DNA from: a virus
Virus record (IMG/VR): IMGVR_UViG_3300047489_000453
Span: 32,001-96,000 of that record
Strand: one strand, 5' to 3'
DNA length: 64,000 nt
The position numbers were made by a program, and so were the translations under genes. Below the pieces are notes generated by a model. The model was not told the DNA's origin. It saw only the letters and a program-made list of their open reading frames with translations, and ran no database searches. Shown here piece after piece: positions 1,232 through 60,703 of the stretch. Within the stretch, counting starts at the first letter, position 1. Every line of letters starts with the position of its first letter.

Positions 1232-2173
1232 TTATCTGTATCTTCCAAAACCATCGTAGGTAGATCCAAAAGAGCCGTCCCAGGCTTCTTTGTTGATGGC
1301 CACTTTGGTCATCTTACACCATTTAAGGTAGTCCTGTAACATTCTATCGCCTGTTACTTCATATTCTTGGGCCTTGTTCTTATCATCAACAGATAATCCA
1401 CCAGCACTGTAGGTCAACTGGTTTCGTCTGTAATGCTTAGCCGCTATAAGGTAAAGCTCGCCTATTACACCGTTAATTAGGGCGGTTGGATTGAAGAAGT
1501 TGTTGGTGTTAAAGAATCTTCTAACTGTAGGCTGCATAGTATTCCAATGCTCTACGCATTTGAGCATACATAAGATTATTTCTGAGTCATCAAACTCAAA
1601 GGTATTTAACAATGGATTATCTTCTGGAGCATTATCTCTAAGTGCTATTCTTATTGCGGATATCTGAGGCACGCCGGATGCTTTACCTGATATAGCTGTA
1701 ACTGAACCAAATTGGCTCTTGTCAACCAAGACGTAAAGCCTTGATACATGAATAAGTTCGCCAATAGTGGAGACAACTCCACAATTTAGTTCAAGTATCT
1801 GATGAAGACTTGTGGCAGTGGCTGGAATCTTTGCCCTTACAACTCCTGCCGCTGCGTCAATAAACGCAGCCTCGGTGTCTACAATGTAGATACCGTTAGA
1901 CGTGTCTAAGGCTTCTCTGCCCTTTAATAATACCTTTCCGCTTGGAGACCCAGACGACGAGCTCAATGAGCTTGACGTTATGCTAGAAAACCCACAGGTT
2001 TCAAAGTTTATAGGCCTGCCGCGATCGTCCCGCAATACTAGTTCTACTACTGGGGCAGTGCCCTGAGGTATGGCTACAGCCGGTACTTTGGCCAAAATAG
2101 GTCTGTTGTCTACTGTCGTTACCGCAGGCCTTACTACCAGCTGGTCAGAGCATTCTATTATTGAGGGGTCCAT
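1232..2173 (-). CDS. Putative virion head-tail connector protein
   Basis: 313 aa, co-oriented downstream of capsid genes; function is positional inference only. Confidence 0.35.
   Translation of the reverse strand: MDPSIIECSDQLVVRPAVTTVDNRPILAKVPAVAIPQGTAPVVELVLRDDRGRPINFETCGFSSITSSSLSSSSGSPSGKVLLKGREALDTSNGIYIVDTEAAFIDAAAGVVRAKIPATATSLHQILELNCGVVSTIGELIHVSRLYVLVDKSQFGSVTAISGKASGVPQISAIRIALRDNAPEDNPLLNTFEFDDSEIILCMLKCVEHWNTMQPTVRRFFNTNNFFNPTALINGVIGELYLIAAKHYRRNQLTYSAGGLSVDDKNKAQEYEVTGDRMLQDYLKWCKMTKVAINKEAWDGSFGSTYDGFGRYR
1767..1782. repeat. Dispersed 16-bp palindrome copy
   Basis: GTGGAGACAACTCCAC, 2 mismatches to GTGGAGACGTCTCCAC, inside CDS. Confidence 0.65.
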
Positions 2174-2181
2174 GCCGGCTC

Positions 2182-3444
2182 CTATATTTTACATATACCT
2201 GGTTGGTGCTGTCCTTTCAAAGCACATAGGTCTGCGTAAACATACAAAATGTTGTGAGCCCTATGAAATTCCGATGGATGAGAAGTCCAAACTCTTACAT
2301 CCTGGAACCTACACTCTATCTCAGGCACAAACTTTGAGTAGTTCCTGTCTGTATAGTACCAGAAAGAGTTTTGATTGATAAAGTTAATATGTGTTGGATC
2401 TTGGTAAGCTCCTCTGCCGTCAGAACTTGGAGTCCCAGAAAGTATCCAACCACCAGGGGCTAGTACCCTATAAAAGTCATTCATGCACTGGACAAATTTT
2501 TCTCTTGGAAGATGCTCAAAGAAATCAAACGCCCTTAATATACCGACGGAATTATCGTCAAACGGTAGAGGAGATTCTCCTACTCTGTGAATAATCTCAG
2601 CGTTTCTAATATCCAGGCTTTTGTACTGCTTTGGAGAATTAAAGCCTCCTCCAAGGTCTATCATTAAAAGCTTTTCTCTTCGGCTCCATTCTTCGCACAT
2701 TCTATGTAAGAATCTATTGAAGGTATTGTTTTGAGTCTTGGCTATTAGTTCTCTCTTTTTAACAAACGAGTTGCTCTTTTTGGGGTCTAATATCCTTCGG
2801 TACAAGTATAGGCACTCTGGGTGATGCACAAACTTGCACCCGGCCAAATAAGTACGGCATACAAGATCATGATCATCTCCAACTTCCAAAGTAGCATCAT
2901 GCCCGCCTGCAGCGTAATAGACATCTCTGTGCCAGGCCCTTACGTGGTTAGGCGCGTACCATATCTCGCCCAGAGCCCTAGGAGTAGCAGCGAATGCCCT
3001 GTGAGCGGCGTATTTCTTGTCGTCTAAAGTAAAGTCATAAGTCTTCCAGCCATGCTGGTGATTGTAAAGCTCTGGAGACCCGTTTGGAAAAAAGCTAGCA
3101 AAGTCAGAATAATGAAAGGCTGGTCCTATCTCTTGATGCTTGTCGTAGATCTTTTCCAGGGCTGTAGGCACCAGCATATCATCATGGTCTAGCTCTACAT
3201 AAATGTCACCGGTTGCTTGGTTACATGCATAGTTTTTTAGATAACCTATTTTATCGCTAGATACCGGTCTGATTAAAACCCTAGGGTCGTTAACTATTTC
3301 AGCCGGCATCTGGAGGCTTTCCGCCCCGTTTGGGACTATTACCCACTCCCAGTCTTTATAGGTTTGTTTTAATAAGCTTTTATATGTTTCAAGAATCCAA
3401 GTTGGGTCATTTGTTGGCGTGAATACGCTAAACTTTATCGACAT
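2182..3444 (-). CDS. Glycosyltransferase family 2 fused to SAM-dependent methyltransferase domain
   Basis: N-term FSVFTPT..SLLKQTYKDWEWVI..ELDHDD (GT2 DxD); C-term IDLGGG..FFEHL..YRVLAPGG methyltransferase motifs. Confidence 0.8.
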   Translation of the reverse strand: MSIKFSVFTPTNDPTWILETYKSLLKQTYKDWEWVIVPNGAESLQMPAEIVNDPRVLIRPVSSDKIGYLKNYACNQATGDIYVELDHDDMLVPTALEKIYDKHQEIGPAFHYSDFASFFPNGSPELYNHQHGWKTYDFTLDDKKYAAHRAFAATPRALGEIWYAPNHVRAWHRDVYYAAGGHDATLEVGDDHDLVCRTYLAGCKFVHHPECLYLYRRILDPKKSNSFVKKRELIAKTQNNTFNRFLHRMCEEWSRREKLLMIDLGGGFNSPKQYKSLDIRNAEIIHRVGESPLPFDDNSVGILRAFDFFEHLPREKFVQCMNDFYRVLAPGGWILSGTPSSDGRGAYQDPTHINFINQNSFWYYTDRNYSKFVPEIECRFQDVRVWTSHPSEFHRAHNILYVYADLCALKGQHQPGICKI

Positions 3445-3523
3445 ATTTTCCTTCTTTCTGTGTTAGACAATAACAACGAAGTAAGGATAACTATATTGAA
3501 AAAAAGTTTCTAGTGTAGAAATA

Positions 3524-3553
3524 AAAAAGCCCCGGACTGCTCCGGGGCTTTTT
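3524..3553. terminator. Intrinsic terminator (bidirectional-looking) after the capsid operon
   Basis: AAAAAGCCCCGGA-ctgc-TCCGGGGCTTTTT hairpin with A/T tails. Confidence 0.8.
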
Positions 3554-3567
3554 AGTACAAGCCAAGC

Positions 3568-3900
3568 TTAGATTGAGCTTGAGTATGTTACGCCGCAAGG
3601 ATCTGCGACAGTTACGCTGCCATTGTCGATAGCCACGGTTTTCGTGACGTCAAGGGTAGCGTCATACAGGAAGGGCGTTGGGCTGCTAACTACAACAATA
3701 TCACCATTCTGAAGAGCGTTTTGAAACGCAGTTCGCTTCCTTTTGGAAGTAATAGCCTGCAGCAGAGCTGGTAGGCTACCGAAGAAGGTGTATTCTTGAC
3801 CAGCAGTCAAAGTCTTACCATGAGGAGGCAAAAAACCAAAAGTGGCAGTTGCTCCAGTCATGTTACGAACTTTGGTTTCCAAACAAGTAGTGTTAGCCAT
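3568..3900 (-). CDS. Hypothetical virion protein
   Basis: 110 aa, GGAGG RBS, last gene before the terminator of the capsid operon. Confidence 0.6.
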   Translation of the reverse strand: MANTTCLETKVRNMTGATATFGFLPPHGKTLTAGQEYTFFGSLPALLQAITSKRKRTAFQNALQNGDIVVVSSPTPFLYDATLDVTKTVAIDNGSVTVADPCGVTYSSSI

Positions 3901-3917
3901 TTTAAATTAAACCTCCG

Positions 3918-4310
3918 TTATTCAGCAGCCATCTGCTTAGCGATAGCGCCGTGATATGTGAGGACGGCATTAATCAAGTCTTCCCTATTGGCAAGCTCGT
4001 TAGATGCTTGCTTAATAGTCTGCTGCAAGTGTACATCTCCCGCAGGTCCACCTACCAAATTACCCAATTGCTGATTTGCAGCCTTAAGGAAGTTGGTTTG
4101 AGTGGAGGCGCTCTTTACTTGCTCCTGTGCATGGGCTTCGCCAAGACGGGCAGCAATTTCAAGGAGGCTGCCGACTTCTTCATCATTTTGTGGAACGATG
4201 CCGTAGTCGCTTGCGAGCTTTTCCAAGAAAACGGGAACAAAGACTTCCCGAATAAGAGTTGCATGTGCAGCTTGAGCCTGATTAAGCTCGTCGTGCGTCA
4301 AATTAGCCAT
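3918..4310 (-). CDS. Hypothetical head-associated protein (K-x-A motifs)
   Basis: 130 aa, GGAGG RBS; EKLAS, VKSAS, IKQAS motifs. Confidence 0.6.
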   Translation of the reverse strand: MANLTHDELNQAQAAHATLIREVFVPVFLEKLASDYGIVPQNDEEVGSLLEIAARLGEAHAQEQVKSASTQTNFLKAANQQLGNLVGGPAGDVHLQQTIKQASNELANREDLINAVLTYHGAIAKQMAAE

Positions 4311-4363
4311 GATAGCCTCCGAAGCCTATTGAAATTGGGGCCTCGTTAGAGGCCCCATGCCCA

Positions 4364-5293
4364 TTACGCAAAGTCAGCTCTAGCGATTGCGTTGGTGTTA
4401 CCAATTGCACCGCCGAGGGTTTCATAGGCGAAAAATTCGAGCATATACGCCTTACGATCGATATAAAGCGTGGTATCCTCTAAAATGAAACTTTTGCCTA
4501 CAAATTTAGGGTCAGCGAACATAAAGATGCTGTCCGTAGGAACCAAATCCTGCTTGATGGAGATAATCCAACGAGCATTCATGAAGTTCTGTTCGGTCCA
4601 ACCGTTCTTGAATACGTCCTGGCTGAAGTCACCGCCCATTTCTTCACGACCGAATTTCATCAGTTCGCGAATAGTAAGGTTGTTGATCAAGCAGGTGCCT
4701 ACTTCAAGGCGGCTGATGGTGCGAGGCAGAATCTTGAAAGCATCTTGAAGGGTATCACGAGTGATACCGCCGTAGATGGTTTCCCACTGTACCAAACCGG
4801 ACTGGGATACAGTAGTGTTAGCTGCGCTGCCCATAGCTGCGTTGCAAGCGGCGATGAACTTGCGATCTTCTTCCGCTAACATGTCCTTTATGGCGTTATC
4901 AGACAGGATCTGCCTGATGTCCATACGATAAGTGCGAAGTTCATCAACGTCCTTCGTGAATCGTGGGGTCACGATTCGGTCAAAGGTAACGCGATACTTC
5001 TGGCCACGAACATAGAGGTTCATAGGCAGAGTAGCGAAGGGAATGGAGATAGCAGCTGGGCTATCAGGTTCCCTTTCGATGATCTTAACAGGCTTATCGG
5101 TATCTACCTGTTGATCGAGATCGTCGTTGCTTACCTGGATTGGAGGAAGAATTCGTCGATAGAATCCTTCTTCACGCATCCTGTACCTGGTGTAGTCGAC
5201 CACTGCGTCGAGTGCTCGCTTTTCCATTCCAGGGGTTTCAAGGTAGCTGAGGAATGTTTCGTTCATCAGCTTAGTGTCGTTGTCGTAAGACAT
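4364..5293 (-). CDS. Probable major capsid protein (HK97/encapsulin-like fold)
   Basis: 309 aa; AAGGAGG RBS; RMREEGFYRRILP and long spine-like helix AIKDMLAEEDRKF; canonical protease-scaffold-capsid gene order. Confidence 0.65.
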   Translation of the reverse strand: MSYDNDTKLMNETFLSYLETPGMEKRALDAVVDYTRYRMREEGFYRRILPPIQVSNDDLDQQVDTDKPVKIIEREPDSPAAISIPFATLPMNLYVRGQKYRVTFDRIVTPRFTKDVDELRTYRMDIRQILSDNAIKDMLAEEDRKFIAACNAAMGSAANTTVSQSGLVQWETIYGGITRDTLQDAFKILPRTISRLEVGTCLINNLTIRELMKFGREEMGGDFSQDVFKNGWTEQNFMNARWIISIKQDLVPTDSIFMFADPKFVGKSFILEDTTLYIDRKAYMLEFFAYETLGGAIGNTNAIARADFA

Positions 5294-5316
5294 TTTGTAT
5301 GGCCTCCTTATGCCTA

Positions 5317-5874
5317 TTAGTATCCGGTCTTACCTGGTTTGTAAATAGGCCAGAACGCCAACACGTTGTTGCGATCTGACTGGCGCTTACGGACGCCTCT
5401 GGAAACTACGCCTACGATAGCGGTGGGGTTAGAGCCACCATCTTCGAGGACAGAAACGCTGGCGTTGGTCAGGAGACCGCCGTCTGTGCTGCTGTTCGAG
5501 CTGCTCTTGCAACGAAGATATTCGTTAGGAGCATAGGTATTGGCAGAGTCGAACTCGGTAGTTTCGAGTTCATAGGCACCTTTAGCGACCAAACCGGTAA
5601 TATTACCAGCAGGCCCGATTGGATACCAACGAGTGCCCCCAGAATTGGAGACGTCGTTGTCGTCACTGTTCTGCAGCAAGAAGATCGGCATCTGGGAACC
5701 AGTGCAGCCGAGCTCGAACTCACCGCTAGAGTTGAGATGAACGCAGCGGCCTGCGTACACAACGTCAACAGTAACGTTGCTTGACAGCTTGGCGGTAAAG
5801 TCCAGAGCTGCCATGTGGAACCAACCCTTGATTGCGTCTAGGGTATGGTCAAACATTTGGCGTGTAGTTGCCAT
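5317..5874 (-). CDS. Putative capsid decoration/cement protein
   Basis: 185 aa Gly/Ser/beta-rich protein immediately upstream of the capsid gene. Confidence 0.4.
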   Translation of the reverse strand: MATTRQMFDHTLDAIKGWFHMAALDFTAKLSSNVTVDVVYAGRCVHLNSSGEFELGCTGSQMPIFLLQNSDDNDVSNSGGTRWYPIGPAGNITGLVAKGAYELETTEFDSANTYAPNEYLRCKSSSNSSTDGGLLTNASVSVLEDGGSNPTAIVGVVSRGVRKRQSDRNNVLAFWPIYKPGKTGY

Positions 5875-5918
5875 TCTTAAAGACCTCCGTGTCTTTTAAA
5901 CTATCAACCTAGCGCGAG

Positions 5919-6308
5919 TTATGCCAAACCAAGATGTTGGCGGAAACGACGATCGGACTCGCGCTCGGAAGTAGTCCGTCGTCCTACATAAGGATCATTC
6001 ATAGAGTCTGATGCACTGGCTGATTTCTCAGTTTTGCCGATAGCTTTCGGCCTCACAGTGCGGTTAACGTCAGCTGCCTTGATAAGGATCTCCAAGGCTT
6101 TAGCATGATTTGTAAGGGCTTCAGCAGCCTTTTCCCTGTCGGCTGGGTCGATCCTATCGAATTGGATAAGAGCGTCTACAGCTTTAGGAAGCAAGTCGTT
6201 GACTTTAGCGTCGCTGGCTTGCTTTTCATTCAACTGCTTATCAGCAGCAGCCAAGGCTGCCTCGACACATTGAACGTAGTCAATTGTCTTTTCGTACAAG
6301 TTAGACAT
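5919..6308 (-). CDS. Hypothetical scaffold-associated protein
   Basis: 129 aa helical; EKQAS, IKAAD, EKSAS motifs; AGGAGG RBS. Confidence 0.55.
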   Translation of the reverse strand: MSNLYEKTIDYVQCVEAALAAADKQLNEKQASDAKVNDLLPKAVDALIQFDRIDPADREKAAEALTNHAKALEILIKAADVNRTVRPKAIGKTEKSASASDSMNDPYVGRRTTSERESDRRFRQHLGLA

Positions 6309-6323
6309 TAAAGTGGCCTCCTA

Positions 6324-7622
6324 TTAACCAATTATGTCACGAATGCATGATTTAATCTGGTCACGGAGAGCCCTCTGCTGAGCAGTCTTGGCTTCTGTAA
6401 CCCTAAACTTACCAGCTTTAATCTGGTTGTCCCTAACAGACTTGGCTTGCTTAATTAACTTAATAAGCCCAACTGTTTCGGGGTCAGATTTTTTAGCTGA
6501 TCCCATTTTAGGCATTGCTGCGGCGTCTGCGCCTGCTTCTGGCCCGCCTGCACCGCCTTCAACCATTTGAAGCAACTGGGCAGGGTCGACGCCTTGTTCC
6601 TGAAGAGCCATAAGAAGTTCTTGAACAGCGTCTCCTTCTGGAGCGCCTTCAGGCATACCGCCAGGAGCGGCTTCTTCGCCGGCCATCTGAGAAAGTAGCG
6701 CTGGATCAATGTCCATGCCGCCTTCTTCAGAAGCGTGCTCAGCGGCTTCTTCTTCTGGGCTTTCAGAGCTTTCTTGTTCTGGCGATTCATGGGTCTCTTC
6801 GCTAGAGCCACCGGCTGCCTCGCCCTCAGCGGCGGCTTTGTAAAAAGACTGGAGGTATGCTCCTACCATTGCAGCCTTTTCAAGCCCATCAGCGATAGTC
6901 GACTCTAAAGAACCAGATACAGCGGCATGAGCAGCTTTAACTAGCTCAGCTTGATCTTGTTCTGTCAAAGAAGCGGCGGCCTGGCCAGCTCTAGCAGCTG
7001 CCATCTTAGGTTCTTCTTTCTTCTTGCCTGCCCTGAGTGCAGCAAGGTCAGAACCTTCGATTTTGCCGTTATTATTCACGTCGAGCTTGGGCTGATCGCC
7101 TTTAAGCTCTTTTTTTTCTTCTGCCTTTTCTTCTGCAGCAGATTCTTCAGCGCTCTTGATGATATCAGCAAGAATGTTGTTGGCCTTATCTGCGGCTAAT
7201 TTTCGAAGTTGACCGTAGCTAAGCGAGCTATATTTTTCGCCTTCGCCAGCCTTGGCAGCATGATCAGTGCCTGGGTCATCTTTCTTTTCTTTATAGTTAT
7301 CTTCGTTAGAAGGATCTTCACCAGTAGCGGTGCTGGTAATACCAACATTGTGCTGCTGGTCTGCTTGGGCAGGAGCCTTGTCTGCAGCAGAGTCTACTCC
7401 GCCTGCAGGAATGGTGTCCTTAACGTCACCAGTATTTTCTTGTGACCTTTTTCCTTCCGAGGCTGGAAGGGTACCGTCGTCCTGGCTTTTGCTAGGATGA
7501 GTAGTAGGTCCGCCTTGAGCGGTTGTCTCGGTGTTGGCCTCTGCACGTTTCTTAACAGAAGCTTGTTTTTCATTTTCAACTTCTGCTAAAAAATCTCGCA
7601 GCTGATCGAATAGCTGAGGCAT
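6324..7622 (-). CDS. Probable prohead scaffolding protein
   Basis: 432 aa acidic Ala/Glu/Lys-rich low-complexity protein between protease and capsid genes; many K-x-A motifs. Confidence 0.55.
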   Translation of the reverse strand: MPQLFDQLRDFLAEVENEKQASVKKRAEANTETTAQGGPTTHPSKSQDDGTLPASEGKRSQENTGDVKDTIPAGGVDSAADKAPAQADQQHNVGITSTATGEDPSNEDNYKEKKDDPGTDHAAKAGEGEKYSSLSYGQLRKLAADKANNILADIIKSAEESAAEEKAEEKKELKGDQPKLDVNNNGKIEGSDLAALRAGKKKEEPKMAAARAGQAAASLTEQDQAELVKAAHAAVSGSLESTIADGLEKAAMVGAYLQSFYKAAAEGEAAGGSSEETHESPEQESSESPEEEAAEHASEEGGMDIDPALLSQMAGEEAAPGGMPEGAPEGDAVQELLMALQEQGVDPAQLLQMVEGGAGGPEAGADAAAMPKMGSAKKSDPETVGLIKLIKQAKSVRDNQIKAGKFRVTEAKTAQQRALRDQIKSCIRDIIG

Positions 7623-7775: not shown

Positions 7776-9215
7776 CTATTGCATATTATTGTAAGCCACG
7801 ACAGCCCTTCCGAAACCTAATTCTTGGTCTTCGGATTTAGCTGCGGCTTTGATCCATTGTAGCTGATTAATAGCGTATGCCTTGGCTAATTCAGCGTATT
7901 TCTCAGAGTATTCAGCTTCTTTTTCTAAACCTGTGTTAGCCTTTGGAGCTGAAGTTCCCGACAATATCAGTTTAGATATACCGGCTGACAGGGCTGCTGT
8001 CTTTATAGAAAGAGAATTAGATGCCTTAGCGGCTTCTAATTGCTGCCTTTCACTGGAAATAAGATTATATGGGTTAGATCTCCTGTCCGAAGCCGCCTTC
8101 TCAATAGTGGAGACGTCTCCAATAAGCTTGCTAAAAATATTAGGAAGATATTTTTTAACTTCAGACGCTACTTTTTCGTGTCCTTTAGCTAGCAGCCAGT
8201 CCTCTAAGGAAATCATAATACCGTTCGAGGCACAAGCAGCCCAGGGGTAGGAAACGCTTGCTGAGGCTTGTTTCCAGAAAGTTATAGGCTTAATTCTGTC
8301 TTTGATGGCGCTGTAAAAGGCCGAATGACCTTCCATGCACTTCTTTTCAAGCTCAGCGAGCTTTCTTGACAGGCTGGCTAGTTTTATTGATTCGCCGGTA
8401 AGATCACTTGCCCAAACTCCATCAGGAGCTTCTATTCCAGCCATTTCGGCCAGCTCAGCTCCGCCAGCTACATATAACCCAGAAGCTGCCTTATAATGAC
8501 CAACAACCCAAGCGATTCTATCAGCAGGCCTATAAACATCGCTGATATCAAACCAAGTAGGGTTAGGGTTGTCGACATGCAGTACATGACCGTCTTCGGC
8601 GACTTTTGTGAGGTTAATCCTGCAACCACCATAATCGCAATTATCTTCAGTACAGTACTCATCCCTATTTCTCGCCTTGTTTCCACAGCCTGAACATACG
8701 TCGTAGGCTACTTTACAAGCCATACTTACGCCCCAGTTATCATCACCTGAGGCAATCTTCTGCATTTCTTTATCTGCTAATAAGCCACCATTTCTAGCTG
8801 CCGCTTCTTTTGTGGCGTTTAAAGCAACTATCAGCTCAACTCTTTTCATCTTATCGTTGAACATCGAGGCTTTAACTAAGCCATAACTTGTTTTAGGGTC
8901 TTTATTCTTATGGTTTCTATACCACCTGGCGTGCTTTACAAAAGTGTCGTGGTATTTACGGCAGGTAGCTTCTTTGAACCCGTCGCCATTACGATTAGGG
9001 CCGTAGGCCTCTGTAGCACCGATGGCGATCATATGAATAGGCTGTTCGCCTGGCTTAAACTCTATACCTTTAAGCATGTGGGCGGCTTCTGCTCCGGCTC
9101 TTTTTACAAAGCTGGACAAGTCTGTTCCTACCAAACCTTTTGATGATACTTTTATCAACGAGCTTACAGAGTCACCAAAGTCTTGTGAATGAGGCGTTAT
9201 AACCTTGATCATCAT
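7776..9215 (-). CDS. Probable capsid maturation (prohead) protease
   Basis: NRNGDGF, NHKNKDP and VSMACKVAYDVCSGCGNKA..C motifs (His and Ser candidates, Cys cluster) resembling large-phage maturation proteases; C-terminal part rich in K-x-A. Confidence 0.6.
   Translation of the reverse strand: MMIKVITPHSQDFGDSVSSLIKVSSKGLVGTDLSSFVKRAGAEAAHMLKGIEFKPGEQPIHMIAIGATEAYGPNRNGDGFKEATCRKYHDTFVKHARWYRNHKNKDPKTSYGLVKASMFNDKMKRVELIVALNATKEAAARNGGLLADKEMQKIASGDDNWGVSMACKVAYDVCSGCGNKARNRDEYCTEDNCDYGGCRINLTKVAEDGHVLHVDNPNPTWFDISDVYRPADRIAWVVGHYKAASGLYVAGGAELAEMAGIEAPDGVWASDLTGESIKLASLSRKLAELEKKCMEGHSAFYSAIKDRIKPITFWKQASASVSYPWAACASNGIMISLEDWLLAKGHEKVASEVKKYLPNIFSKLIGDVSTIEKAASDRRSNPYNLISSERQQLEAAKASNSLSIKTAALSAGISKLILSGTSAPKANTGLEKEAEYSEKYAELAKAYAINQLQWIKAAAKSEDQELGFGRAVVAYNNMQ
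8107..8122. repeat. Dispersed 16-bp palindrome copy
   Basis: GTGGAGACGTCTCCAA, 1 mismatch, inside CDS. Confidence 0.75.
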
Positions 9216-15260: not shown

Positions 15261-15680
15261 TTAAGAGTCATAATCCGTAATATTTACATTTAGCAGGCTT
15301 CTAGCCGCTACTCCGCTCTTTATAAAATTTAGGAAGTTTTGAAGATTCCTAATTTCAGCCATCTTAGCATAATTAGTTTGTGAATTAATAGTGGAGACAT
15401 CTCCACGATTAATTTGTTGTACAGGAGAAGGAGGCTGAATGACTGGCTGGGGATTATTAGATTGGGTCGTCACTATAGGCTGACTCTGTACTCTAGGCTG
15501 TATATTAGGGCTAGTATCTACTGACTTTACAGCCACTTCAGAAGGCGGCTTACCCTTAGTGGCCTCGTTTACTTGCAAAGGTTTTAGTGTTTCTTTTTCT
15601 GTTTTAGACTGGGACCCTTCAAGTTTTAAAGACTTGTCGGCCTGCTTCCAGGTAGCCCACTTTTCTAAAAAGGTTTGCAT
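15261..15680 (-). CDS. Hypothetical Pro/Gln-rich protein
   Basis: 139 aa, start overlaps the stop of the beta' C-half gene; EKWAT/WKQAD leader. Confidence 0.55.
   Translation of the reverse strand: MQTFLEKWATWKQADKSLKLEGSQSKTEKETLKPLQVNEATKGKPPSEVAVKSVDTSPNIQPRVQSQPIVTTQSNNPQPVIQPPSPVQQINRGDVSTINSQTNYAKMAEIRNLQNFLNFIKSGVAARSLLNVNITDYDS
15391..15406. repeat. Dispersed 16-bp palindrome copy
   Basis: GTGGAGACATCTCCAC, 1 mismatch, inside CDS. Confidence 0.75.
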
Positions 15681-27842: not shown

Positions 27843-27844
27843 GA

Positions 27845-29821: not shown

Positions 29822-29909
29822 AGTATCCTCCAACACAAATAGTACCAATTCTTGAGGGTCCAATCTATAGTTTAGGTTTAACAATTTTACCTTTAGGAGG
29901 GTAGTTTCA

Positions 29910-35209: not shown

Positions 35210-35236
35210 TATGACGCTAAAATGCTTCTAATTTAG
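35210..35236 (-). promoter_or_regulatory. Bipartite promoter-like motif
   Basis: Minus strand CTAAATTA-N11-GCGTCATA. Confidence 0.55.
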
Positions 35237-36000
35237 CTTTTCTTATTTAGATACATATCGCACAAAAATGTGAAAGAAAACTTCTTTAGCTTGTCTCTTA
35301 CGGTCGATATGTTAAGGCCAAACTTCTTAGCCCATCTTGGAAGTGTCATTGATTTGCCCATGTAGCTATACAGCTTAGGCTTGTTTATTTTTTTAGCCAT
35401 TGGAGACGCTGCTATGTCGTCTCCGCTGTATCCTTGGACATACAGGCTGCATACTGTTTCAAAATTAAGTCTAAGCTGCTTACAAAACGCGCTTAGGCTG
35501 AGTATCTCGCCCTTATAAACCACATCTCCGCATACCTTTGGAGGCTCTTCCATTATGGCCTCCTCAAAAGTCAACCCTCTCCTTAGCCTGGTATTTATAG
35601 TGTTGTAACACAGACCGAGATCTTTACACCAAACTGCAAGTGGTTGCTTTTTGCCTTTATATTCTATTATTCTGTTGGTTGACTTGTTTATAGCCTGCAT
35701 TTCAGAGACTATCCATTTCATGTTATTTGTCACGTAACCTTTATCATTATCTATCCTTTCAATCGTAAATTTATCCTTGGGTAAAGGGCATTCTCCAACT
35801 TCATTAAGAAAGTTTAAAAAGCTGTACCTGTAAAAGTCATCAAATACAAATCCTCTTCCGCCGTAGTTCTCATATCTTGCGTGTCTTGGATTGTGACACT
35901 TACTTATTATTCTTTGCCATGTTTTGTACTCTTTATAAAACCGTCTTCCTGGCATTGATGCGCCAGCCACGTCTAAATTTGTGAATGAATAATTTGGCAT
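35233..36000 (-). CDS. HNH-type homing endonuclease-like protein with C-terminal DNA-binding repeats
   Basis: EYKTW..I..KC.NP...YENYGGRG..TIERIDNDKGY...N.KW; repeated YKG...L..W...GL units. Confidence 0.75.
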   Translation of the reverse strand: MPNYSFTNLDVAGASMPGRRFYKEYKTWQRIISKCHNPRHARYENYGGRGFVFDDFYRYSFLNFLNEVGECPLPKDKFTIERIDNDKGYVTNNMKWIVSEMQAINKSTNRIIEYKGKKQPLAVWCKDLGLCYNTINTRLRRGLTFEEAIMEEPPKVCGDVVYKGEILSLSAFCKQLRLNFETVCSLYVQGYSGDDIAASPMAKKINKPKLYSYMGKSMTLPRWAKKFGLNISTVRDKLKKFSFTFLCDMYLNKKS

Positions 36001-40527: not shown

Positions 40528-40543
40528 ATGGAAACGTCTCCAC
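40528..40543. repeat. Dispersed 16-bp palindrome copy
   Basis: ATGGAAACGTCTCCAC, 2 mismatches, intergenic upstream of phoH. Confidence 0.65.
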
Positions 40544-45392: not shown

Positions 45393-47216
45393 TTACATTT
45401 TCATACGAAATTTTTTATACCATACGGCGAACATAACTATAGTGAATAGCTCTTTTTGGGCATTTAGCCCAGGTCCGGCTGACGGCTTGCCGCTTGCCTT
45501 TTTAGGACCGATATGGTTTACATTATTTAAATATTTGTTGTCTATATCTGCGGAGTTTATTTCGAATATTTCCATTATTTCCCGGTCACTAAGAATATCT
45601 CTGAAATAAGCCCTTATAGGTGAATTCTTCTTGGCCGGGTAGGCCTGAGTGCCGATTACCCAATCGTCAGTAGGAGCCCTCCAGCCTGTCTTGTTTTTAG
45701 TTGTTATAAACTCTGGGAGCTTTGAGTTGTAAGCAAGCCTTAGTAAGTTTTTATTGCACTGATCCCATCTTAGCTTGGAATGCTTTGGAGCGGCTTTTAG
45801 GTTTCCAGGTATACTTCTAGCAAAGTTTTTAAAAACATTACACATCATTGGAAACCTGGCTTCCATTCCAAAGGCCATTCCCAACTTGTCGTTTCTTACT
45901 AAAAAATCCTCACTTAAAGTGTGGAGGCTCTCTATGTACATTATGTCATTAAGATTATTACCAGTCAGGCCGCCTTTTGGAATCCACGACATAAGATACT
46001 CGTGCTGATCTTTGTTTGTAAGCGCCTTTGCTGGATCTAATAGTTTTCTGTGGTGTAGCCTAAGGCTGTCAAGCCTGTCATTAAAAGTGGCATGATTAAA
46101 GTAGTGCTTGTACCCGGCTAGCAGTTCGTCTCCTCCGTCACCGCTCAATGTGACTATTACGCCGTTGTCGCGCAGAAACTTATTAGTGGCGTAATAAGCC
46201 GAGTAACTTTTACCCTGCCTAGGCTCTTCAAGGGCCAGAACCGCAGACTCAAGATTGTCCAGCCAAGCCTGTTCGTTTATTTTTATTTCTTTATGGTCAG
46301 AGCCATAAAGCTCTGCAAGCTGCTTGGCTAAGACGGCATCCTCGTTATGGTTGCACTTTTTATGCGGAATATCAAATTTTGTGGAAAAGGTATGGGCGCT
46401 TATACCAAGTGATTTTGACATTTCGTAAAGAACAGACGAGCTGTCCATGCCGCCGCTAAGAAACAAGCCTACCTGCCTGCGCCCCATAAGTGTCATACTT
46501 ACGGCTTGTTTAAGCTTATCGTGAAGTAGAAGCGGAATGTCTTCTTCGTTCGAAGTAAATGGGTCTATCGGCCTGTTATTAATATTACTGCTATATTTGA
46601 CTCCTGTTCTTATATCCAGCTCTATAATTTCACCGGGTACAAGCCTGCTTATATTCTTGAAGCACGTTATTGGCCCGGCCGTCAGGCCTGAATAATAGAA
46701 GTGCTTGAACCCGTCTATGGACACTTTTCTCTCAAACCCAAGCTCAAGTAAGCTTGCCACCTCTGACGAGAATGCGAGTTTATTTTTTAGATATCCATAG
46801 AATAAAGGCTTGGCTCCGTTACTATCCCTTGCCAGTAGCAGCTTCTTTGATTTCTTATTATAAATAGCCACGGCAAACATACCGTCGCACTCGTATAAAA
46901 AGTCTTTTCCAAACTTTTCATACCCTTTGATTAAAACTTCGGTGTCTGTATCAGACACGAAGTCGCCGCCTATCTTAGCTCTAAGGGATTTGTAGTTATA
47001 GATTTCGCCGTTGTATACCATGACACTTGATTCAGTGTGCCATGGCTGGCTTGATTGTGGAGGCGTATCCACTATTGATAAAAGATTATGCCCCAAGGTT
47101 ATAAAGTCGTCGCCCCATATACCTTCGCCGTCTGGGCCTCTGTGTCTTGCTTTTTTAACCATGGCCGGCATGGCGCCGGTGTCATCTTTCCAACAAAATC
47201 CATGAATACCGCACAT
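45393..47216 (-). CDS. asnB: Asparagine synthase-like glutamine amidotransferase
   Basis: MCGI Ntn nucleophile, HRGPD, YNGEIYN, ARD..G.KPL, LSGGMDSS, LSGDGGDE, EARFP. Confidence 0.9.
   Translation of the reverse strand: MCGIHGFCWKDDTGAMPAMVKKARHRGPDGEGIWGDDFITLGHNLLSIVDTPPQSSQPWHTESSVMVYNGEIYNYKSLRAKIGGDFVSDTDTEVLIKGYEKFGKDFLYECDGMFAVAIYNKKSKKLLLARDSNGAKPLFYGYLKNKLAFSSEVASLLELGFERKVSIDGFKHFYYSGLTAGPITCFKNISRLVPGEIIELDIRTGVKYSSNINNRPIDPFTSNEEDIPLLLHDKLKQAVSMTLMGRRQVGLFLSGGMDSSSVLYEMSKSLGISAHTFSTKFDIPHKKCNHNEDAVLAKQLAELYGSDHKEIKINEQAWLDNLESAVLALEEPRQGKSYSAYYATNKFLRDNGVIVTLSGDGGDELLAGYKHYFNHATFNDRLDSLRLHHRKLLDPAKALTNKDQHEYLMSWIPKGGLTGNNLNDIMYIESLHTLSEDFLVRNDKLGMAFGMEARFPMMCNVFKNFARSIPGNLKAAPKHSKLRWDQCNKNLLRLAYNSKLPEFITTKNKTGWRAPTDDWVIGTQAYPAKKNSPIRAYFRDILSDREIMEIFEINSADIDNKYLNNVNHIGPKKASGKPSAGPGLNAQKELFTIVMFAVWYKKFRMKM
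47057..47072. repeat. Dispersed 16-bp palindrome copy
   Basis: GTGGAGGCGTATCCAC, 2 mismatches, inside asnB. Confidence 0.6.
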
Positions 47217-47269: not shown

Positions 47270-47983
47270 TTATTTGGGTGGTTGGTAGTTAGGGCTTAAA
47301 ACGCCGCTTCTATATAAATTATACAGGTGGTACGGCAAAACAGGGGCGGCCGGCGCTGGGTGCATTCCAGCGCCGTGAGCTATAGCATCGGCGGTGGTGT
47401 GACCGGCTAAGTGCCCCAAAGCTTTAGGAGCATGCTGAACTGCTAGATTTGAAGCTGTATGGCCTACGGTACTGGCAAGATGAGGCTGAGCTGCCTGTGC
47501 CGCAGGTGCGAGAATCTTGCCTCCATAATAACCTGCTGTGCGGCTAGCCCCTGATATTCCTAAAGTTGACGCCATCGTATTAAAAGCGTGCTGGTCTTGC
47601 TCGCTTTTTTGCCTAAATTTTTCGGCCTCTAGCCCTTTAGTAGGGAAGCTTTTTTGCTCCCCAAGCCTTGCAGTTTCTTTAAGCCTTTCCAGGTCTTGCT
47701 GCTTAGTAGTCAGGCCTTTATGGCTAAGATAGTCACTGGCTTGCTGCTGCATAGTAGGAGCTTGCCTGGACGCCCACAGCTCATTTAGCGTAGGGTTTTT
47801 AGATGGACTAAAGGAGCGATCTGGAGGAACAGGAAGCGGTCGACCTCTACCGTCTAAAGGTCTTATACGGTCAGGGCTATTATACGGCTGAGGGGATTGG
47901 CCGCCTGGCGCTACCGGTTGATTGCCTGCGGCAATTTTTCCCATAAGCTTGCCAAAGTTTTCCGCTCTTCGAATATTAATCAT
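47270..47983 (-). CDS. Leader-bearing hypothetical cargo protein
   Basis: N-term MINIRRAENFGKLMGKIAA; Cys-free. Confidence 0.7.
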   Translation of the reverse strand: MINIRRAENFGKLMGKIAAGNQPVAPGGQSPQPYNSPDRIRPLDGRGRPLPVPPDRSFSPSKNPTLNELWASRQAPTMQQQASDYLSHKGLTTKQQDLERLKETARLGEQKSFPTKGLEAEKFRQKSEQDQHAFNTMASTLGISGASRTAGYYGGKILAPAAQAAQPHLASTVGHTASNLAVQHAPKALGHLAGHTTADAIAHGAGMHPAPAAPVLPYHLYNLYRSGVLSPNYQPPK

Positions 47984-48009
47984 GTATCACCTGTAAGTAT
48001 TGTATAATT

Positions 48010-48636
48010 CTAGCGTTCTAGGCTTTTACTCACTGCATTATTAACTGCTTTTTGAGCACTTATTGGATCTGTTAGTTTAATTGAACTGCCTGCTACGTTT
48101 CTAGCGTAATTACCCCAAGATCCTGCAGGAGTAAATAGGGCTTTAAGTACGCTTGGGCCTTTGTATGCCAGCGCCAAATCACCACTTGAACCTATTAACC
48201 CATGTCCTCTTTGTAGATTGTAATCAATCATTGCTTGGTGTTTAGCTTTGTTTTCAGCTTCCCATGCCTCTCTTTGCTCTGGACTGGCTGCGGCCCACCT
48301 GCTTTTATCGGTAGGAAAATACTTTCCGGCTGCTTGGTCTTTTGCTCTTGCAGTGTCAGACATCTCATAACTTGCATTGTACTTTTTGGGGGGAGAGCCT
48401 GATAAACTTGGAGCCGCATTATTAGCCTGGTTCCACATCTTATTTTGTTGTTCAAATCCTAAAGGTTGTTTTGTTTCTTTAAGGTTTACGCTTTTAACAG
48501 GAGCCCCCAGTTTGCCAGGAACTGGTGTTACTGATAAAGGGTCGGCAGAATTGGCGGAAAGATTGTCAGCTGCTATCTTTCCCATAATCTGGCCAAATCT
48601 AGCCGCTTTGGTAAATCTATTCATTATTTTACTCAT
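48010..48636 (-). CDS. Leader-bearing hypothetical cargo protein
   Basis: N-term MNRFTKAARFGQIMGKIAA; Cys-free. Confidence 0.7.
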   Translation of the reverse strand: MSKIMNRFTKAARFGQIMGKIAADNLSANSADPLSVTPVPGKLGAPVKSVNLKETKQPLGFEQQNKMWNQANNAAPSLSGSPPKKYNASYEMSDTARAKDQAAGKYFPTDKSRWAAASPEQREAWEAENKAKHQAMIDYNLQRGHGLIGSSGDLALAYKGPSVLKALFTPAGSWGNYARNVAGSSIKLTDPISAQKAVNNAVSKSLER

Positions 48637-49193
48637 GAGTCAGCCGTTAGCTTACTTACGTTGTTTTCACCAGTTACGTTTTTCTTTTTGCAGCCAACCG
48701 GAATATAGAATCCTAATTGTGGAGACGTCTCCAAACCATAGCTCCGGCGTATATCCTCAAGATTATCACTTTCTATTGAAATTGCCCATAGCTTTTCGTA
48801 CTCACCGTTAGCTGGGAGCTCTACTATTGGGCCTAAAGTATAGTTATAAGCGTGCCCTCTTTCAGTTACTTTGTCAGGGCCGCCAATCTTATCTACTTCG
48901 GCTTTGGTCATTACTTTAATAGCAGCCTCAGTACGATTATTACGCACAACAAACTCAGCGCCAGGCTCATGTAGGGCATCGAATACTCCTTTGATTAGGG
49001 AAGCTGGGACAGTAAGTTCTATGCCGCCGTTAGGGCCTGCTTGAAGCCTACCGGATAAAGCATGCACAGCCGTATGTGACCCTGCTTTGCATAGATGCCC
49101 GTGAGCCTGACCTAATGAAAAGAACTCGGAGTCGATGAGCTTTGCTCTTTCGATTCCTTTAGATAAACCCAACGATAGCGGCGGTATGGTCAT
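48633..49193 (-). CDS. Hypothetical protein, possibly degenerate 2H-phosphoesterase fold
   Basis: Spacing AAIKV ... SDNLEDIRRSYGL ... FYIPV resembles 2H fold, but with both HxT/S His missing. Confidence 0.35.
   Translation of the reverse strand: MTIPPLSLGLSKGIERAKLIDSEFFSLGQAHGHLCKAGSHTAVHALSGRLQAGPNGGIELTVPASLIKGVFDALHEPGAEFVVRNNRTEAAIKVMTKAEVDKIGGPDKVTERGHAYNYTLGPIVELPANGEYEKLWAISIESDNLEDIRRSYGLETSPQLGFYIPVGCKKKNVTGENNVSKLTADS
48719..48734. repeat. Dispersed 16-bp palindrome copy
   Basis: GTGGAGACGTCTCCAA, 1 mismatch, inside CDS. Confidence 0.75.
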
Positions 49194-56831: not shown

Positions 56832-57797
56832 CTATCTTCTTGCTGGGTTAGTTAGATTTTTTACATTGTTTGAAATGGGGTCAGGTTTAGCTGGCTTTGG
56901 AGGATTAGTCTGAGCTATTACTGCAGATGACGGCTTTAAAGCGGCATTCTTTGTAGGAGCCGGTTTTGGAATAGGCCTGCTCTTCAAAGACTTAGCCGCT
57001 ATCGCGAGAGCCCCTTTGACTTGATCGAGGGTGGCTTCTTTAGGCAGCTCTCTTGCTATTTTAGACAGGTCTGTATTTGATAGCTTGTTTCCATCAGGCA
57101 CAAGGGTAGCTGCCAGGCCAAGAGTGGTTAGATTCCAAACCAATTGCTTAGACGCCAATCCATTATTCAATACGTTGGTTATATTGCCCGGAGTAAATGA
57201 GTCTTTGTTTACTTTGTTTGGATTGGTCAAGTCTTTTAAAGAATTCTGATAGTTAAAGGCTGCTTGTGCTTCTTGTCTGGCGCCAGCTACGGCCACGTCG
57301 TTGGCCGCCCTGGCATCAGCTACTATTGAACCCATTACTTGGTCAGGAGATGGAAGTGGAGATTGATTTGGATTGTTAGGGCTTTTGTAGTTGTTAATAG
57401 TAGACTGGGAGTTGAATATGTCCTTATTGTATTTTGTTATCTTGGCGTTGAAATCAGCTTCTGCCTGCCCTGGGTCGCCAATATAGCCGCCCGCAGATCC
57501 AGCAGATTTTAGCTTTCCGCCGTTTCTTATCACTATGGCTTTCCACTTATCTACCTCTAATTGAAGTTTTGTATAAGTAGCAAAGCTATAACCAGGCGCT
57601 CTTTGGTCAGGGTTAGCTACTTTAAAGTCCGCCAAAGCCTTGTAAGCGTTGTTATAAGACGTGGCTATTGATGTATAGTACTTTATTCTTTCGTTGGCTA
57701 TTACGATAATATTGTTTGCTCTGATTACGGTAGTCGGGGCGCCTGAGAACCCTGCTGCTGGTTTGTCGACGTCTATTCCTTCATATATAAAAGCCAT
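56832..57797 (-). CDS. Hypothetical protein with PDPISxN..NLTNP C-terminal motif
   Basis: 321 aa; Cys-free; shares C-terminus with downstream gene. Confidence 0.7.
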   Translation of the reverse strand: MAFIYEGIDVDKPAAGFSGAPTTVIRANNIIVIANERIKYYTSIATSYNNAYKALADFKVANPDQRAPGYSFATYTKLQLEVDKWKAIVIRNGGKLKSAGSAGGYIGDPGQAEADFNAKITKYNKDIFNSQSTINNYKSPNNPNQSPLPSPDQVMGSIVADARAANDVAVAGARQEAQAAFNYQNSLKDLTNPNKVNKDSFTPGNITNVLNNGLASKQLVWNLTTLGLAATLVPDGNKLSNTDLSKIARELPKEATLDQVKGALAIAAKSLKSRPIPKPAPTKNAALKPSSAVIAQTNPPKPAKPDPISNNVKNLTNPARR

Positions 57798-57821: not shown

Positions 57822-57837
57822 GTGGAGACGTCTCCAA
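57822..57837. repeat. Dispersed 16-bp palindrome copy
   Basis: GTGGAGACGTCTCCAA, 1 mismatch, intergenic 25 bp upstream of start 57797. Confidence 0.75.
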
Positions 57838-58360: not shown

Positions 58361-58449
58361 CCTGCCACGCCGCTCCTAACCAGCTGACACTCTCAGCTAA
58401 ACTTCAGGTCAACGGCGGTATTCTATAGTATTGGCTGTCTTTGTCTATA

Positions 58450-59175: not shown

Positions 59176-59420
59176 AATGTCACCACAAATTATGAAGTGT
59201 AATTATCTTGATTAAGTTGTATTACTTACCGGCTGCTAAATCAACCATAAGTGGAAGCTAATCCACTATTTTGTCTAATAAAAGTATACTGCAGTTATTC
59301 TTATTTTTAAGAATCTATTCTCACTTTTAAGAAACGGGTCGTAAATTTGTAAATTTTACGTAAGTAGAAACGTAATAAGGACTTACGTCGAGTCGGGGTT
59401 TAAGGTAAAGGAAGTTTACC

Positions 59421-59708
59421 TTAAGCAGTAGGGGGTTGCAACTTATTTTTAGCTAAAAAAGGATTATCTTCTTTATCACCTAACTGCTTCTGTGTCATAG
59501 GGTTAGGTGATATATTCTTATAATTGAGAATAGATGGTTTCATTTTTTTATTATTAGAACCAACATAGCCCAGATTACCCATGGCTGACTTAACAGCTGG
59601 ACCGCCTTTAGTACAGTTACAGAAGTCATAACCTGTCAGTAGGGTTAATATTTTTTTAACAGCTTCTAATTTATCGTTATTAGCCATGATTCTACCTTGA
59701 TGATACAA
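59421..59708 (-). CDS. Hypothetical protein
   Basis: 95 aa ORF; true start probably at internal MANND. Confidence 0.5.
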   Translation of the reverse strand: MYHQGRIMANNDKLEAVKKILTLLTGYDFCNCTKGGPAVKSAMGNLGYVGSNNKKMKPSILNYKNISPNPMTQKQLGDKEDNPFLAKNKLQPPTA

Positions 59709-59934
59709 ATGGGGTCATTTTGCCGTTATCCAATACAACTTTATCAGAGGCGTGTTCAGCGCAAAAGTCTAAGAATGACTCGAAGTGATTCTTAATATTG
59801 ATAATATCCATGTCAGACAGGCTTGTGTCAGCCTTGATCCTTGCTGATATAAAGTCATCAACAAGAGTCTCTACAAAAGATTCATACTGATCACCTGTAA
59901 ACAACCTAAGATTGGGTCGCTTTGACATAGACAT
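59692..59934 (-). CDS. Hypothetical protein
   Basis: 80 aa, start overlaps upstream stop. Confidence 0.55.
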   Translation of the reverse strand: MSMSKRPNLRLFTGDQYESFVETLVDDFISARIKADTSLSDMDIINIKNHFESFLDFCAEHASDKVVLDNGKMTPFVSSR

Positions 59935-60311
59935 TACTTACCCCCTGTAATAGGTGCTGATGTATCAATTTGATTCTCTGTCCTAGGTGAGGCCAGCATC
60001 TCAGTTGGACCCATGACATTGATAGATACAGATGGTGACGTAATAGTGCTGGACTTATTAAAAGGAATCTTCTCGCCTGTGGATAATATGACAGCTATGC
60101 CTGTATCAATATACTCCATGGCTACAACAGGTTTTTGGCTGATAAGTTCCTTTGACGATTTGATAAAATCAATCACTACTTTATTTGTTGCGTCGTCTGG
60201 ATTGCTCTTATCCTTCCAATTCGTATATAGCCAGGTAAGTAAATCAGGATCATCCTGGGTATACACATTGAACCCGACCGTGTTTTTAAGATACTGAGAC
60301 ATAGCTGACAT
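59934..60311 (-). CDS. Hypothetical protein
   Basis: 125 aa with AAAGG RBS. Confidence 0.6.
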   Translation of the reverse strand: MSAMSQYLKNTVGFNVYTQDDPDLLTWLYTNWKDKSNPDDATNKVVIDFIKSSKELISQKPVVAMEYIDTGIAVILSTGEKIPFNKSSTITSPSVSINVMGPTEMLASPRTENQIDTSAPITGGK

Positions 60312-60329
60312 ATGAAAGCCTTTCTAGTA

Positions 60330-60659
60330 CTACTTCATGTTTAGTTTCATTATAGTTAGCCCTATGGCAACTATAAGGGAACCCAGTGTTACATATTTAT
60401 TAGCGTTTAGACCAAAAAACACAAGAGGGATTACATAATCTGTTAGTATAACCGCAAATTCCCAGCAAAGGCTAAAGAAAAATATCCTGTCAGTGGTCTG
60501 GCATATCCTTACTCCACTGACCCATAGAGATCCTATAAGGAAACTGCAGCACAAAGACATTGCATAATAATACTTGGACTCACGTATGCTATCTGTGTAA
60601 GAGAAAACTAAAGAGGTGCTATAAACTAGTACTACCATAAACAGAATTAGGTAAGCCAT
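60330..60659 (-). CDS. Small 4-TM membrane protein
   Basis: 109 aa, four hydrophobic segments; GGAGG RBS. Confidence 0.65.
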   Translation of the reverse strand: MAYLILFMVVLVYSTSLVFSYTDSIRESKYYYAMSLCCSFLIGSLWVSGVRICQTTDRIFFFSLCWEFAVILTDYVIPLVFFGLNANKYVTLGSLIVAIGLTIMKLNMK

Positions 60660-60687
60660 AGGCCCTCCGTTGTAGTAGTGATTGATT

Positions 60688-60703
60688 GTGGAGACGTCTC
60701 CAC
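60688..60703. repeat. Dispersed 16-bp palindrome, perfect copy
   Basis: GTGGAGACGTCTCCAC, intergenic upstream of start 60659. Confidence 0.8.

Follow-up and report, generated by a model that had tools for sequence, protein, structure and literature searches.

Cluster A stoperators and Chi sites are short DNA words present in many dispersed copies, also within genes, with a genome-wide function; both are asymmetric and depend on orientation. The closest printed case to the element studied here is the 17-bp dyad repeat of the Cluster O mycobacteriophages, TGTTCGG-N3-CCGAACA, which occurs more than 30 times per genome. In the part of their paper that deals with the repeat, its authors suggested a dimeric protein, thought transcriptional control unlikely and left the function unexplained (Cresawn et al. 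2015, PMC4351075). A second point of reference is KorB, which, in the part of the report that concerns its loading, binds at the 16-bp O_B site on RK2, slides away as a clamp and has a reach of up to 1.5 kb (McLean et al. 2025, PMC11790492). Here we describe a 16-bp palindrome, GTGGAGACGTCTCCAC, that is dispersed over a window of 64,000 nucleotides comprising bases 32,001-96,000 of the linear IMG/VR virus contig G000 (record IMGVR_UViG_3300047489_000453; 136,787 bp; CheckV completeness 67%). The copies make up a lattice that is conserved at the level of the DNA, also inside genes.

The original prediction placed eleven copies in the window, and a scan returns exactly these 11 as matches with at most two mismatches (Table 1). 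Allowing a third mismatch adds no copy (0.09 expected), and 100 dinucleotide shuffles of the window give a mean of 0.00 matches and a maximum of 0. Eight of the copies had been assigned to genes and three to intergenic DNA, in agreement with our open reading frame (ORF) calls, in which 8 of 11 fall in ORFs and those at 40528, 57822 and 60688 fall between them. Translation also reproduces the peptides that had been quoted (GDVST, VDVST, GHVST, VETFP, LETSP and VDTPP). Over the whole of G000 there are 21 copies with at most two mismatches and 23 with at most three, and the reversed pattern gives none; of the 23, 18 are inside ORFs, at no particular depth, and 5 are between ORFs. A codon-preserving shuffle with similar counts had been named as an outcome that would refute the motif. 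When 200 such shuffles were made of G000, they left a mean of 4.47 and a maximum of 7 copies, compared with the 21 observed, and the mean is as high as this because four intergenic copies, which the shuffle does not touch, make up nearly all of it.

Conservation was assessed by taking sites with at most one mismatch in one genome and inspecting the aligned place in another. Among 370 site-by-genome comparisons, 110 were alignable, and the site was kept in 102 of these. Identity is 93.4% within the 16-bp motif compared with 66.9% in 112 bp of flanks. The word is selected as DNA, and, judged from these alignments, it behaves as an element under strong purifying selection. Within genes it is read as LETSP or VETxP, as GDVST, or as WRRLH. 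Proteins that elsewhere share 30-70% identity retain these imposed peptides, often beside insertions or deletions (indels), and the motif-free outgroup G005 has other residues where the gene is present (LVVLPS, LSALPK and NWIKAQ). The word overrides protein coding.

Individual sites turn over. The sites specific to G000 are weak ones with two or three mismatches (contig positions 33767, 79057, 96103 and 107699), together with the one at contig position 136161. The latter encodes NGDVST in place of the DSNSAV and TGGKAV of the relatives, and G002 has a site of its own 899 bp away; for the site at 96103, the G002 site lies 1,089 bp away. These two 'moved' sites are anecdotes, not statistics.

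The form of the site was derived from a pool of 133 unique sites from eight genomes. Conservation is 91% or higher at every one of the 14 central positions, and the outermost pair is G/T...C/A. The AT-rich flanks noticed in the original prediction are real: position -1 is A in 103 of the 133 sites, and position +16 is T in 77 and A in 48. These flanks belong to the palindrome, the consensus of which is roughly TA-GTGGAGACGTCTCCAC-TA, giving a full site of ~18-20 bp. Variants mirror one another across the dyad, with 29 G>T changes at position 0 and 26 C>A at position 15, 6 G>A at position 5 and 7 C>T at position 10, and 6 A>G at position 6 and 6 T>C at position 9. A reader with two-fold symmetry would be expected to leave such a pattern, and an RNA hairpin would not. 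Half-sites (8-mers) outside full sites are near chance (0-6 per genome compared with 0.5-2.8 expected). Because the variants are dyad-symmetric without any preference for an RNA stem, and because half-sites occur at chance, the functional unit is the duplex palindrome.

Action of the motif as RNA, in which a 6-bp stem with an ACGU loop would serve processing, stability, antitermination or translation control, is accordingly a quite improbable explanation. Every copy is transcribed, as nearly all genes lie on one strand (136 of the 149 ORFs called in G000 are on the minus strand), and the copies fold at -6 to -11.7 kcal/mol. However, the 5' arm has 27 G>A changes, which break pairs, and the 3' arm has 13 C>U changes, which preserve a wobble pair; this mirror pattern fits duplex DNA. 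Variation is as low in the loop as in the stem, two of the six copies that were folded do not surpass their shuffles (z = -0.7), the window gives 0 Rfam matches, and the copy at 32055, the only one in the window within a plus strand gene, has the same form. An intrinsic terminator fits poorly as well, with only WATT following the stem and no wobble bias.

The copies are dispersed and sometimes flank variable genes, as those of a small mobile element of the miniature inverted-repeat transposable element (MITE) or repetitive extragenic palindromic (REP) type might do, and an adapter or assembly artefact had been raised as a second way to explain them away. Both can be dismissed for practical purposes. 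The flanks are unrelated beyond ~2 bp, and nothing is shared among copies past ~20 bp. Most of the G000 copies are in ORFs, and copies stand in frame in conserved genes at orthologous places in relatives that were assembled independently. DNA contigs from other sequencing runs also read across the sites without breaks, which argues against an assembly artefact.

The copies are spread evenly over the genome. In G000 the gaps have a coefficient of variation (CV) of 0.39, and 0 of 100,000 random placements were as even. When the gaps are pooled (n = 95), their median is 7,529 bp, and they peak sharply at 7-8 kb, the bin into which 22 of the 95 fall. Sites recur about once per 7.5 kb without the regularity of a ruler. 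Genome-unique genes are almost free of sites, with 2 in 93.7 kb compared with 68 in 549.6 kb of shared genes, and the largest gaps (15 kb in G002 and 25 kb in G001) include genome-specific genes or genes with collagen-like repeats. Site-free regions of this kind are bases 1-7000 of G002 (L036) and ~73-83 kb of G001, which contain long collagen-like repeat genes (Gly-X-Y, period 9/18/27/36) and also tandem repeats of 144-147 bp.

A search of IMG/VR with the exact 16-mer returned 59 stretches of 15 contigs. Nine of the 15 (G001-G004 and G010-G014) hold 9-25 sites each, and eight of these nine belong to one clade, as judged by 68-90% nucleotide identity or by RNA polymerase; G011 was only counted, and six short contigs were left aside. 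Alignment of four of the contigs to G000-G002 gave 68-90% identity. RNA polymerase served to find 26 loci, of which only the 5 closest (75-81% identity) have the 14-bp core; the 21 others lack it. The whole genome of G005, from a sister clade at 55% identity, has no copy of the palindrome, and a dyad scan of it found no other palindrome lattice. No obvious lattice was seen in the 24-kb loci of other relatives (L015-L035), and none was found in bases 1-50,000 of Salmonella phage Arash. Within this phage family, as compared through the G005 genome, the 24-kb loci and the first 50 kb of Arash, the lattice is found in one clade only.

A different palindrome, TCCCGATCGGGA, was considered as a lattice of the sister clade and rejected, as it is merely a local cluster of two to three copies. 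Palindromes of this kind lie within ~80 bp of each other at 108841-108902 in G005, 95913-95995 in G006 and 27789-27871 in G007. The cluster looks like an ordinary operator and not a lattice.

For prokaryotes, one genome from each of about 185,000 species was searched (596 Gb). The exact 16-mer occurs in 72 stretches, with at most two per contig and no genome enriched, and by our arithmetic this is in the range of chance, as ~140 are expected at uniform base composition. One of the matches (L208) is in a 4,779-bp scaffold binned in a metagenome-assembled genome of a lake Flavobacteriales; given its small size and lake origin, this scaffold may have been mis-binned and belong to the phage clade, or it may hint at the host. 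A host protein (a nucleoid protein, topoisomerase or partition protein) that reads the sites and is exploited by the phage is a very remote explanation. Profile searches found no reader in the phage, and ~7.5 kb is on the order of bacterial supercoil domains; yet in a search limited to exact matches the 16-mer is enriched in none of the species' genomes, and sister clades of the phage family lack the motif. Since the IMG/VR contigs with the 16-mer belong to the clade wherever this was checked and the prokaryote count is at chance, the reader is probably encoded by the phage clade itself.

The reading we lean towards, with modest confidence, is that the lattice consists of duplex-DNA docking sites for a putative dimeric, clade-encoded protein with a regional, or coverage, function. 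A two-fold symmetric protein would dock on the double-stranded site of ~18-20 bp, and selection would maintain such sites along the entire chromosome at roughly one per 7.5 kb. With this density, it appears that each of them serves a neighbourhood of a few kilobases. Candidate coverage functions are the loading or nucleation of a sliding, spreading or processive protein, or the marking of the DNA as self. Where intergenic space is wanting, the site would be written into genes, with a preference for tolerant places such as gene ends and loops and at the cost of fixed peptides. In a bolder form, which we put forward only tentatively, the lattice would be a genome-wide 'coverage code' of a sort not known from viruses: a clade-specific protein would load at the palindrome and act over ~+/-4 kb. 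It could slide or spread as a coat, or it could give a processive nuclease or translocase a signal to stop or a mark of self. The phage would need a site every 7.5 kb and would alter its own proteins to accommodate sites that drift while the grid stays. The original prediction had proposed a dispersed binding site for a dimeric protein that would organize, segregate or silence the genome or help to package or eject it. The site half of that proposal agrees with the DNA-level selection, the overriding of coding, the dyad symmetry and the ~7.5-kb spacing, and no recognizable gene for the protein half was found.

Several observations weigh against a coverage function or against the protein assumed to provide it. 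The seven related genomes or fragments are also evenly spaced (CV 0.32-0.55, p from <0.00005 to 0.016), but these are the same lattice seen repeatedly through shared ancestry and are not independent tests of evenness. A strict period is absent (Rayleigh test, p 0.07-0.71). A six-frame search with the N-terminal domain of ParB (PF02195) at E<=0.1 found matches in 0 of 5 records (G000, G001, G002, G005 and G007), compared with 11 of 14 control genomes; a very divergent fold could escape this search, as could a gene in the missing parts of G000-G002. No convincing match to a helix-turn-helix (HTH), ribbon-helix-helix or repressor family was obtained with Pfam, PHROGs or NCBIfam. Gene presence and absence does not narrow the search, as 68 of 143 conserved families have no hidden Markov model match in the motif-free G005. 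Furthermore, the 150 bp ahead of start codons contain 37 of 101 sites compared with 17% of random points, a 2.2-fold enrichment that could mean a promoter-proximal role instead of coverage. Finally, all 16 positions of the palindrome, including the centre, are specified, which is more typical of nucleases, recombinases and ParB than of ordinary HTH dimers.

The profile scans that bear on the reader comprised Pfam on 145 ORFs of G000 and 122 of G002, which gave no ParB match, PHROGs on 46 + 150 ORFs, and NCBIfam on 103 conserved ORFs of G002; none of the three gave an integrase or repressor match. In these scans minus-strand translations lacked the first residue and ended in a stop, which leaves profile matches unaffected. 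A search of the rest of the genome for ParB-like or repressor genes had been proposed as a check; the contig and two nearly complete relatives yielded no such gene and no other recognizable gene for a site-specific DNA-binding protein. The 68 clade-specific families remain as candidates for the reader.

Four individual proteins were considered and set aside. A PHROG match to 'DNA binding protein' in G002 (L044:4694-5155) proved to be of the pyrimidine-dimer glycosylase (DenV-like) family, and an 86-residue basic protein beside the terminase gene has only nameless homologues within the clade. A protein of 303-331 residues beside the SbcCD genes resembles the C-terminal part of IS110 transposases and TIGR-Tas proteins, with matches that are weak but concordant (PHROG E 3e-4, NCBIfam E 2e-3, PDB 9mty E 7e-3) and no Pfam match. 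Its gene belongs to the core set of the phage family as a whole and does not track the lattice, being also present in the motif-free G005, G007 and G008 (E 1e-30 to 1e-36). Neither a guide-like copy of a half-site nor a tandem guide array was seen near its gene. The fourth is an HNH_3-like protein that is syntenic in five genomes, just downstream of the ribonucleotide reductase gene. With three HTH repeats and a homing-type appearance, it looks like a fixed free-standing homing endonuclease.

The full specification of the palindrome also suits an enzyme that acts on the DNA. In such a scheme a site-specific nuclease or recombinase, acting as a homodimer, would cleave, nick or recombine the DNA at the sites. 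The outcome could be programmed nicks as in T5, replication starts that are primed by breaks or nicks and spaced so that copying is fast, or hotspots of recombination. We regard this explanation as unlikely. Two metagenome contigs carry deletion joins inside the motif. The X19 contig leaves the window at base 15 of the 48719 copy (48733) and continues in the right flank of the 60688 copy, a 12.0-kb deletion variant; the X9 contig leaves at base 15 of the 57822 copy (57836) for the right flank of the same copy, a 2.9-kb deletion variant. The two contigs come from different studies, both joins fall inside the shared 15 bp, and, by our reasoning, a 15-bp repeat alone should not create them because the contigs are built from 31-mers. 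Intergenic sites are commoner beside genome-unique genes, in 13 of 274 gaps compared with 6 of 504 between shared genes (Fisher p 0.003). Sites also frame a hypervariable island of genome-unique small genes that lies between two conserved blocks (window 60786-63030, contig 92786-95030; G002 106201-109349). Relatives differ wholly in what this island contains, and copies of the motif divide the G002 island into parts; the framing copies are at contig position 92688 in G000 and at 106711, 107241 and 109366 in G002. The phage possesses a family A polymerase, a UvsX-like recombinase, SbcCD-like proteins and HNH genes. Repeat-to-repeat deletions of the same kind are described in the part of the Cluster O paper that treats its repeat (PMC4351075).

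On the other hand, any repeat of 15-20 bp can yield rare deletions. The two closest genome pairs differ by 19 indels, of which just one has a boundary 50 bp or less from a site. Unbroken DNA contigs span the sites; the 24 sequencing runs listed were available as assembled contigs, which cannot show nicks. None of the clade's IMG/VR contigs terminates at a site. As for the enzyme, the syntenic HNH protein beside the reductase gene looks monomeric and of homing type, and a small HNH gene at window 896-1207 has no ortholog in G001. A strain-level search for junctions in metagenomes returned two short loci, neither of which reaches a site, and an exact 34-base stretch of the window has 0 matches in IMG/VR. 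The deletions at sites read as a side effect of a repeated word or as a hint of cleavage, short of an established function.

The upstream enrichment speaks for another explanation, in which a global transcription regulator or roadblock uses the sites as operators and acts on the promoters or 5' regions of downstream genes. Sites stand upstream of certain conserved genes in every genome that covers them, namely DNA polymerase (7/7), PhoH (5/5) and two other genes (6/6 and 4/4). Dispersed operators of this kind have precedents, among them the conserved inverted repeats of phiC31. The sections on O_B describe dispersed palindromic operators for KorB on RK2 (PMC11790492). Nevertheless, about 63% of sites lie deeper inside genes, even spacing is not needed for regulation, and the Pfam, PHROGs and NCBIfam scans found no regulator gene. 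The enrichment fits a promoter-proximal role and a better tolerance of the forced peptide at gene ends equally well. Moreover, a separate signal looks like the real transcription punctuation. It consists of a short GC hairpin on the gene strand followed by TTTTTTTAGCTAT, has eight copies in G000, seven of them intergenic, and stands 0-114 bp ahead of the next start codon. This signal looks like a phage terminator and/or promoter that is distinct from the palindrome, and we hold the operator explanation to be less likely again than cleavage or recombination. Docking sites with regional coverage remain the explanation that we prefer.

Table 1. Sites of the palindrome in the window and other features of G000. 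Positions are those of the window unless a contig or locus is named; G0, G1, G2, G4 and G5 denote genomes G000, G001, G002, G004 and G005.
Feature	Position	Strand	Location and remarks
Site, 2 mismatches (GTGGAGACAACTCCAC)	1767-1782		In ORF 1232-2173(-); peptide CGVVST; lineage-specific, aligned place in G1/G2 not a site
Site, 1 mismatch	8107-8122		In ORF 7776-9215(-); peptide IGDVST; 16/16 identical at orthologous place in G1, G2 and G4
Site, 1 mismatch	15391-15406		In ORF 15261-15680(-); GDVST is the sole conserved island, protein 30-33% identical among relatives
Site, 2 mismatches	20987-21002		Helicase ORF codons 3-8, 4 bp past the stop codon of the fused beta-beta' RNA polymerase gene; GTGA start/stop overlap at the junction; perfect site at same place in G2 and G4
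Site, 1 mismatch	29205-29220		In ORF 28295-29884(-); peptide SGHVST; relatives SGDVST with adjacent indels
Site, 1 mismatch	32055-32070		In class II ribonucleotide reductase gene 29910-32165(+), near its 3' end; encodes VETFPQ; shared with G1, no site in G2 or G4
Site, 2 mismatches	40528-40543		Intergenic, 39 bp upstream of PhoH-like gene start (40489)
Site, 2 mismatches	47057-47072		In asparagine-synthase-like ORF 45393-47216(-); peptide VDTPPQ; lineage-specific
Site, 1 mismatch	48719-48734		In ORF 48633-49193(-); peptide LETSPQ; 16/16 in G1, G2 and G4; outgroup G5 LSALPK
Site, 1 mismatch	57822-57837		Intergenic, 25 bp upstream of start of ORF 56832-57797(-)
Perfect site	60688-60703		Intergenic, 29 bp upstream of ORF 60330-60659(-), edge of hypervariable island
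TTTTTTTAGCTAT 12-mer (starts)	32172, 34246, 36011, 59449, 60736, 61256, 61747; also contig 105156	+	
Separate beta' C-terminal part of RNA polymerase	15680-17590		
Fused beta-beta' RNA polymerase gene	21006-25457		
HNH_3-like protein	35233-36000	-	Usual His replaced (ERIDN), then three ~45-residue HTH-like repeats
Family A DNA polymerase with N-terminal UDG-superfamily domain	L008:14820-18026		
IS110/TIGR-Tas-like protein	L009:13232-14227 (contig 133232-134227)	-	Beside SbcC-like gene

The genes of G000 identify it as a large tailed phage of the group of Salmonella phage Arash and Vibrio phages D69, D148 and D181. Its nearest cultured relatives are ~32% identical in RNA polymerase. Profiles from Pfam, PHROGs and NCBIfam detect sigma-like proteins, ThyX, a class II ribonucleotide reductase, PhoH, SbcCD-like proteins, a UvsX-like recombinase, HNH genes and many sugar and methyl transferases. 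A CsrA homologue is encoded in the clade (G002 L043:12096-12278, plus strand, E 5e-21). G000 and G002 are syntenic at ~69% DNA identity, the completeness of G000-G002 is 67-92%, and the motif-free G005 is a complete 203-kb relative with terminal repeats.

The source is a jumbo phage of fresh water that is uncultured. DNA nearly identical to it occurs in metagenome runs from fresh water and lakes in 12 studies; no RNA run is on record with it, and two runs labelled RNA-Seq are probably DNA. In runs X19 and X20 the contigs omit ~634-641 bp within window 47919-48628, a segment containing ORF 48010-48636. These contigs also have dense single-base differences elsewhere, indicating strain variants of the phage in those samples. 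The avoidance of 6-bp palindromes differs by genome: TCCGGA occurs 0 times compared with 9.4 expected and CCCGGG once compared with 6.9 in G000, GTCGAC 3 times compared with 11.9 in G001, and CGGCCG once compared with 6.7 in G002. This suggests a separate restriction pressure on each lineage. No pattern of avoidance is tied to the motif, as GACGTC also occurs 19 times outside the sites in G000.

If the lattice is indeed a set of docking sites with a coverage function, a large virus spends protein-coding freedom on a regular grid of one DNA word. Jumbo phages would then have a chromosome-scale process for which no gene is annotated, with coating, compaction, self-marking and the start of replication or repair as candidates. 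The clade provides a clean test set of ~130 sites in eight genomes, with gains and losses and a motif-free sister clade. The reader and its site would also form a compact and highly specific DNA-binding module, given that the 16-mer occurs 72 times in the 596 Gb of prokaryote DNA.

Compared with known systems, the analogy to parS drawn in the original prediction holds for form only: both are palindromes of 14-16 bp in several copies, and the N-terminal (CTPase) domain of ParB is not detected by profile. The stoperators differ in that the phage site is palindromic with symmetric variants, and the scans give no repressor or integrase match. Unlike Chi, the unit is the whole palindrome, and half-sites are not over-represented by themselves.

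The Cluster O repeat is nearer. In both cases a single dyad-symmetric word lies within and between genes, mostly at the same places in relatives, and according to the part of the paper that concerns the Cluster O repeat, sites are lost by single base changes, deletions run between copies and the word is absent from host genomes, as for the lattice (PMC4351075). A dispersed dyad repeat of this sort, taken as a descriptive class and not a homologous family, is present here in tens of copies at shared positions, with no enrichment in any prokaryote genome searched. Occasional deletions bounded by copies are represented by the two motif junctions and the framed island, though a single indel in 19 is at a site. 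In contrast, the Cluster O phages are unrelated 70-kb mycobacterial siphoviruses with another word and a variable 3-bp spacer, and the same part of the paper describes copies ~2 kb apart and concentrated in one arm, with no regular spacing reported there (PMC4351075). The phage lattice is contiguous and fully specified, recurs every ~7.5 kb over the whole genome and overrides the amino-acid sequence.

The likeness to KorB lies in the use of the site. As the sections on O_B describe it, a 16-bp site is dispersed over a replicon and one site serves the DNA flanking it, which is a reason for spacing (PMC11790492). The reach of 1.5 kb given there compares with about +/-3.7 kb that the phage lattice would need, and the O_B sites are described as promoter-linked and not written into genes, unlike those of the phage (PMC11790492). 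By homology the lattice is a member of neither system; its form is like that of the Cluster O repeat and its logic like that of KorB/O_B.

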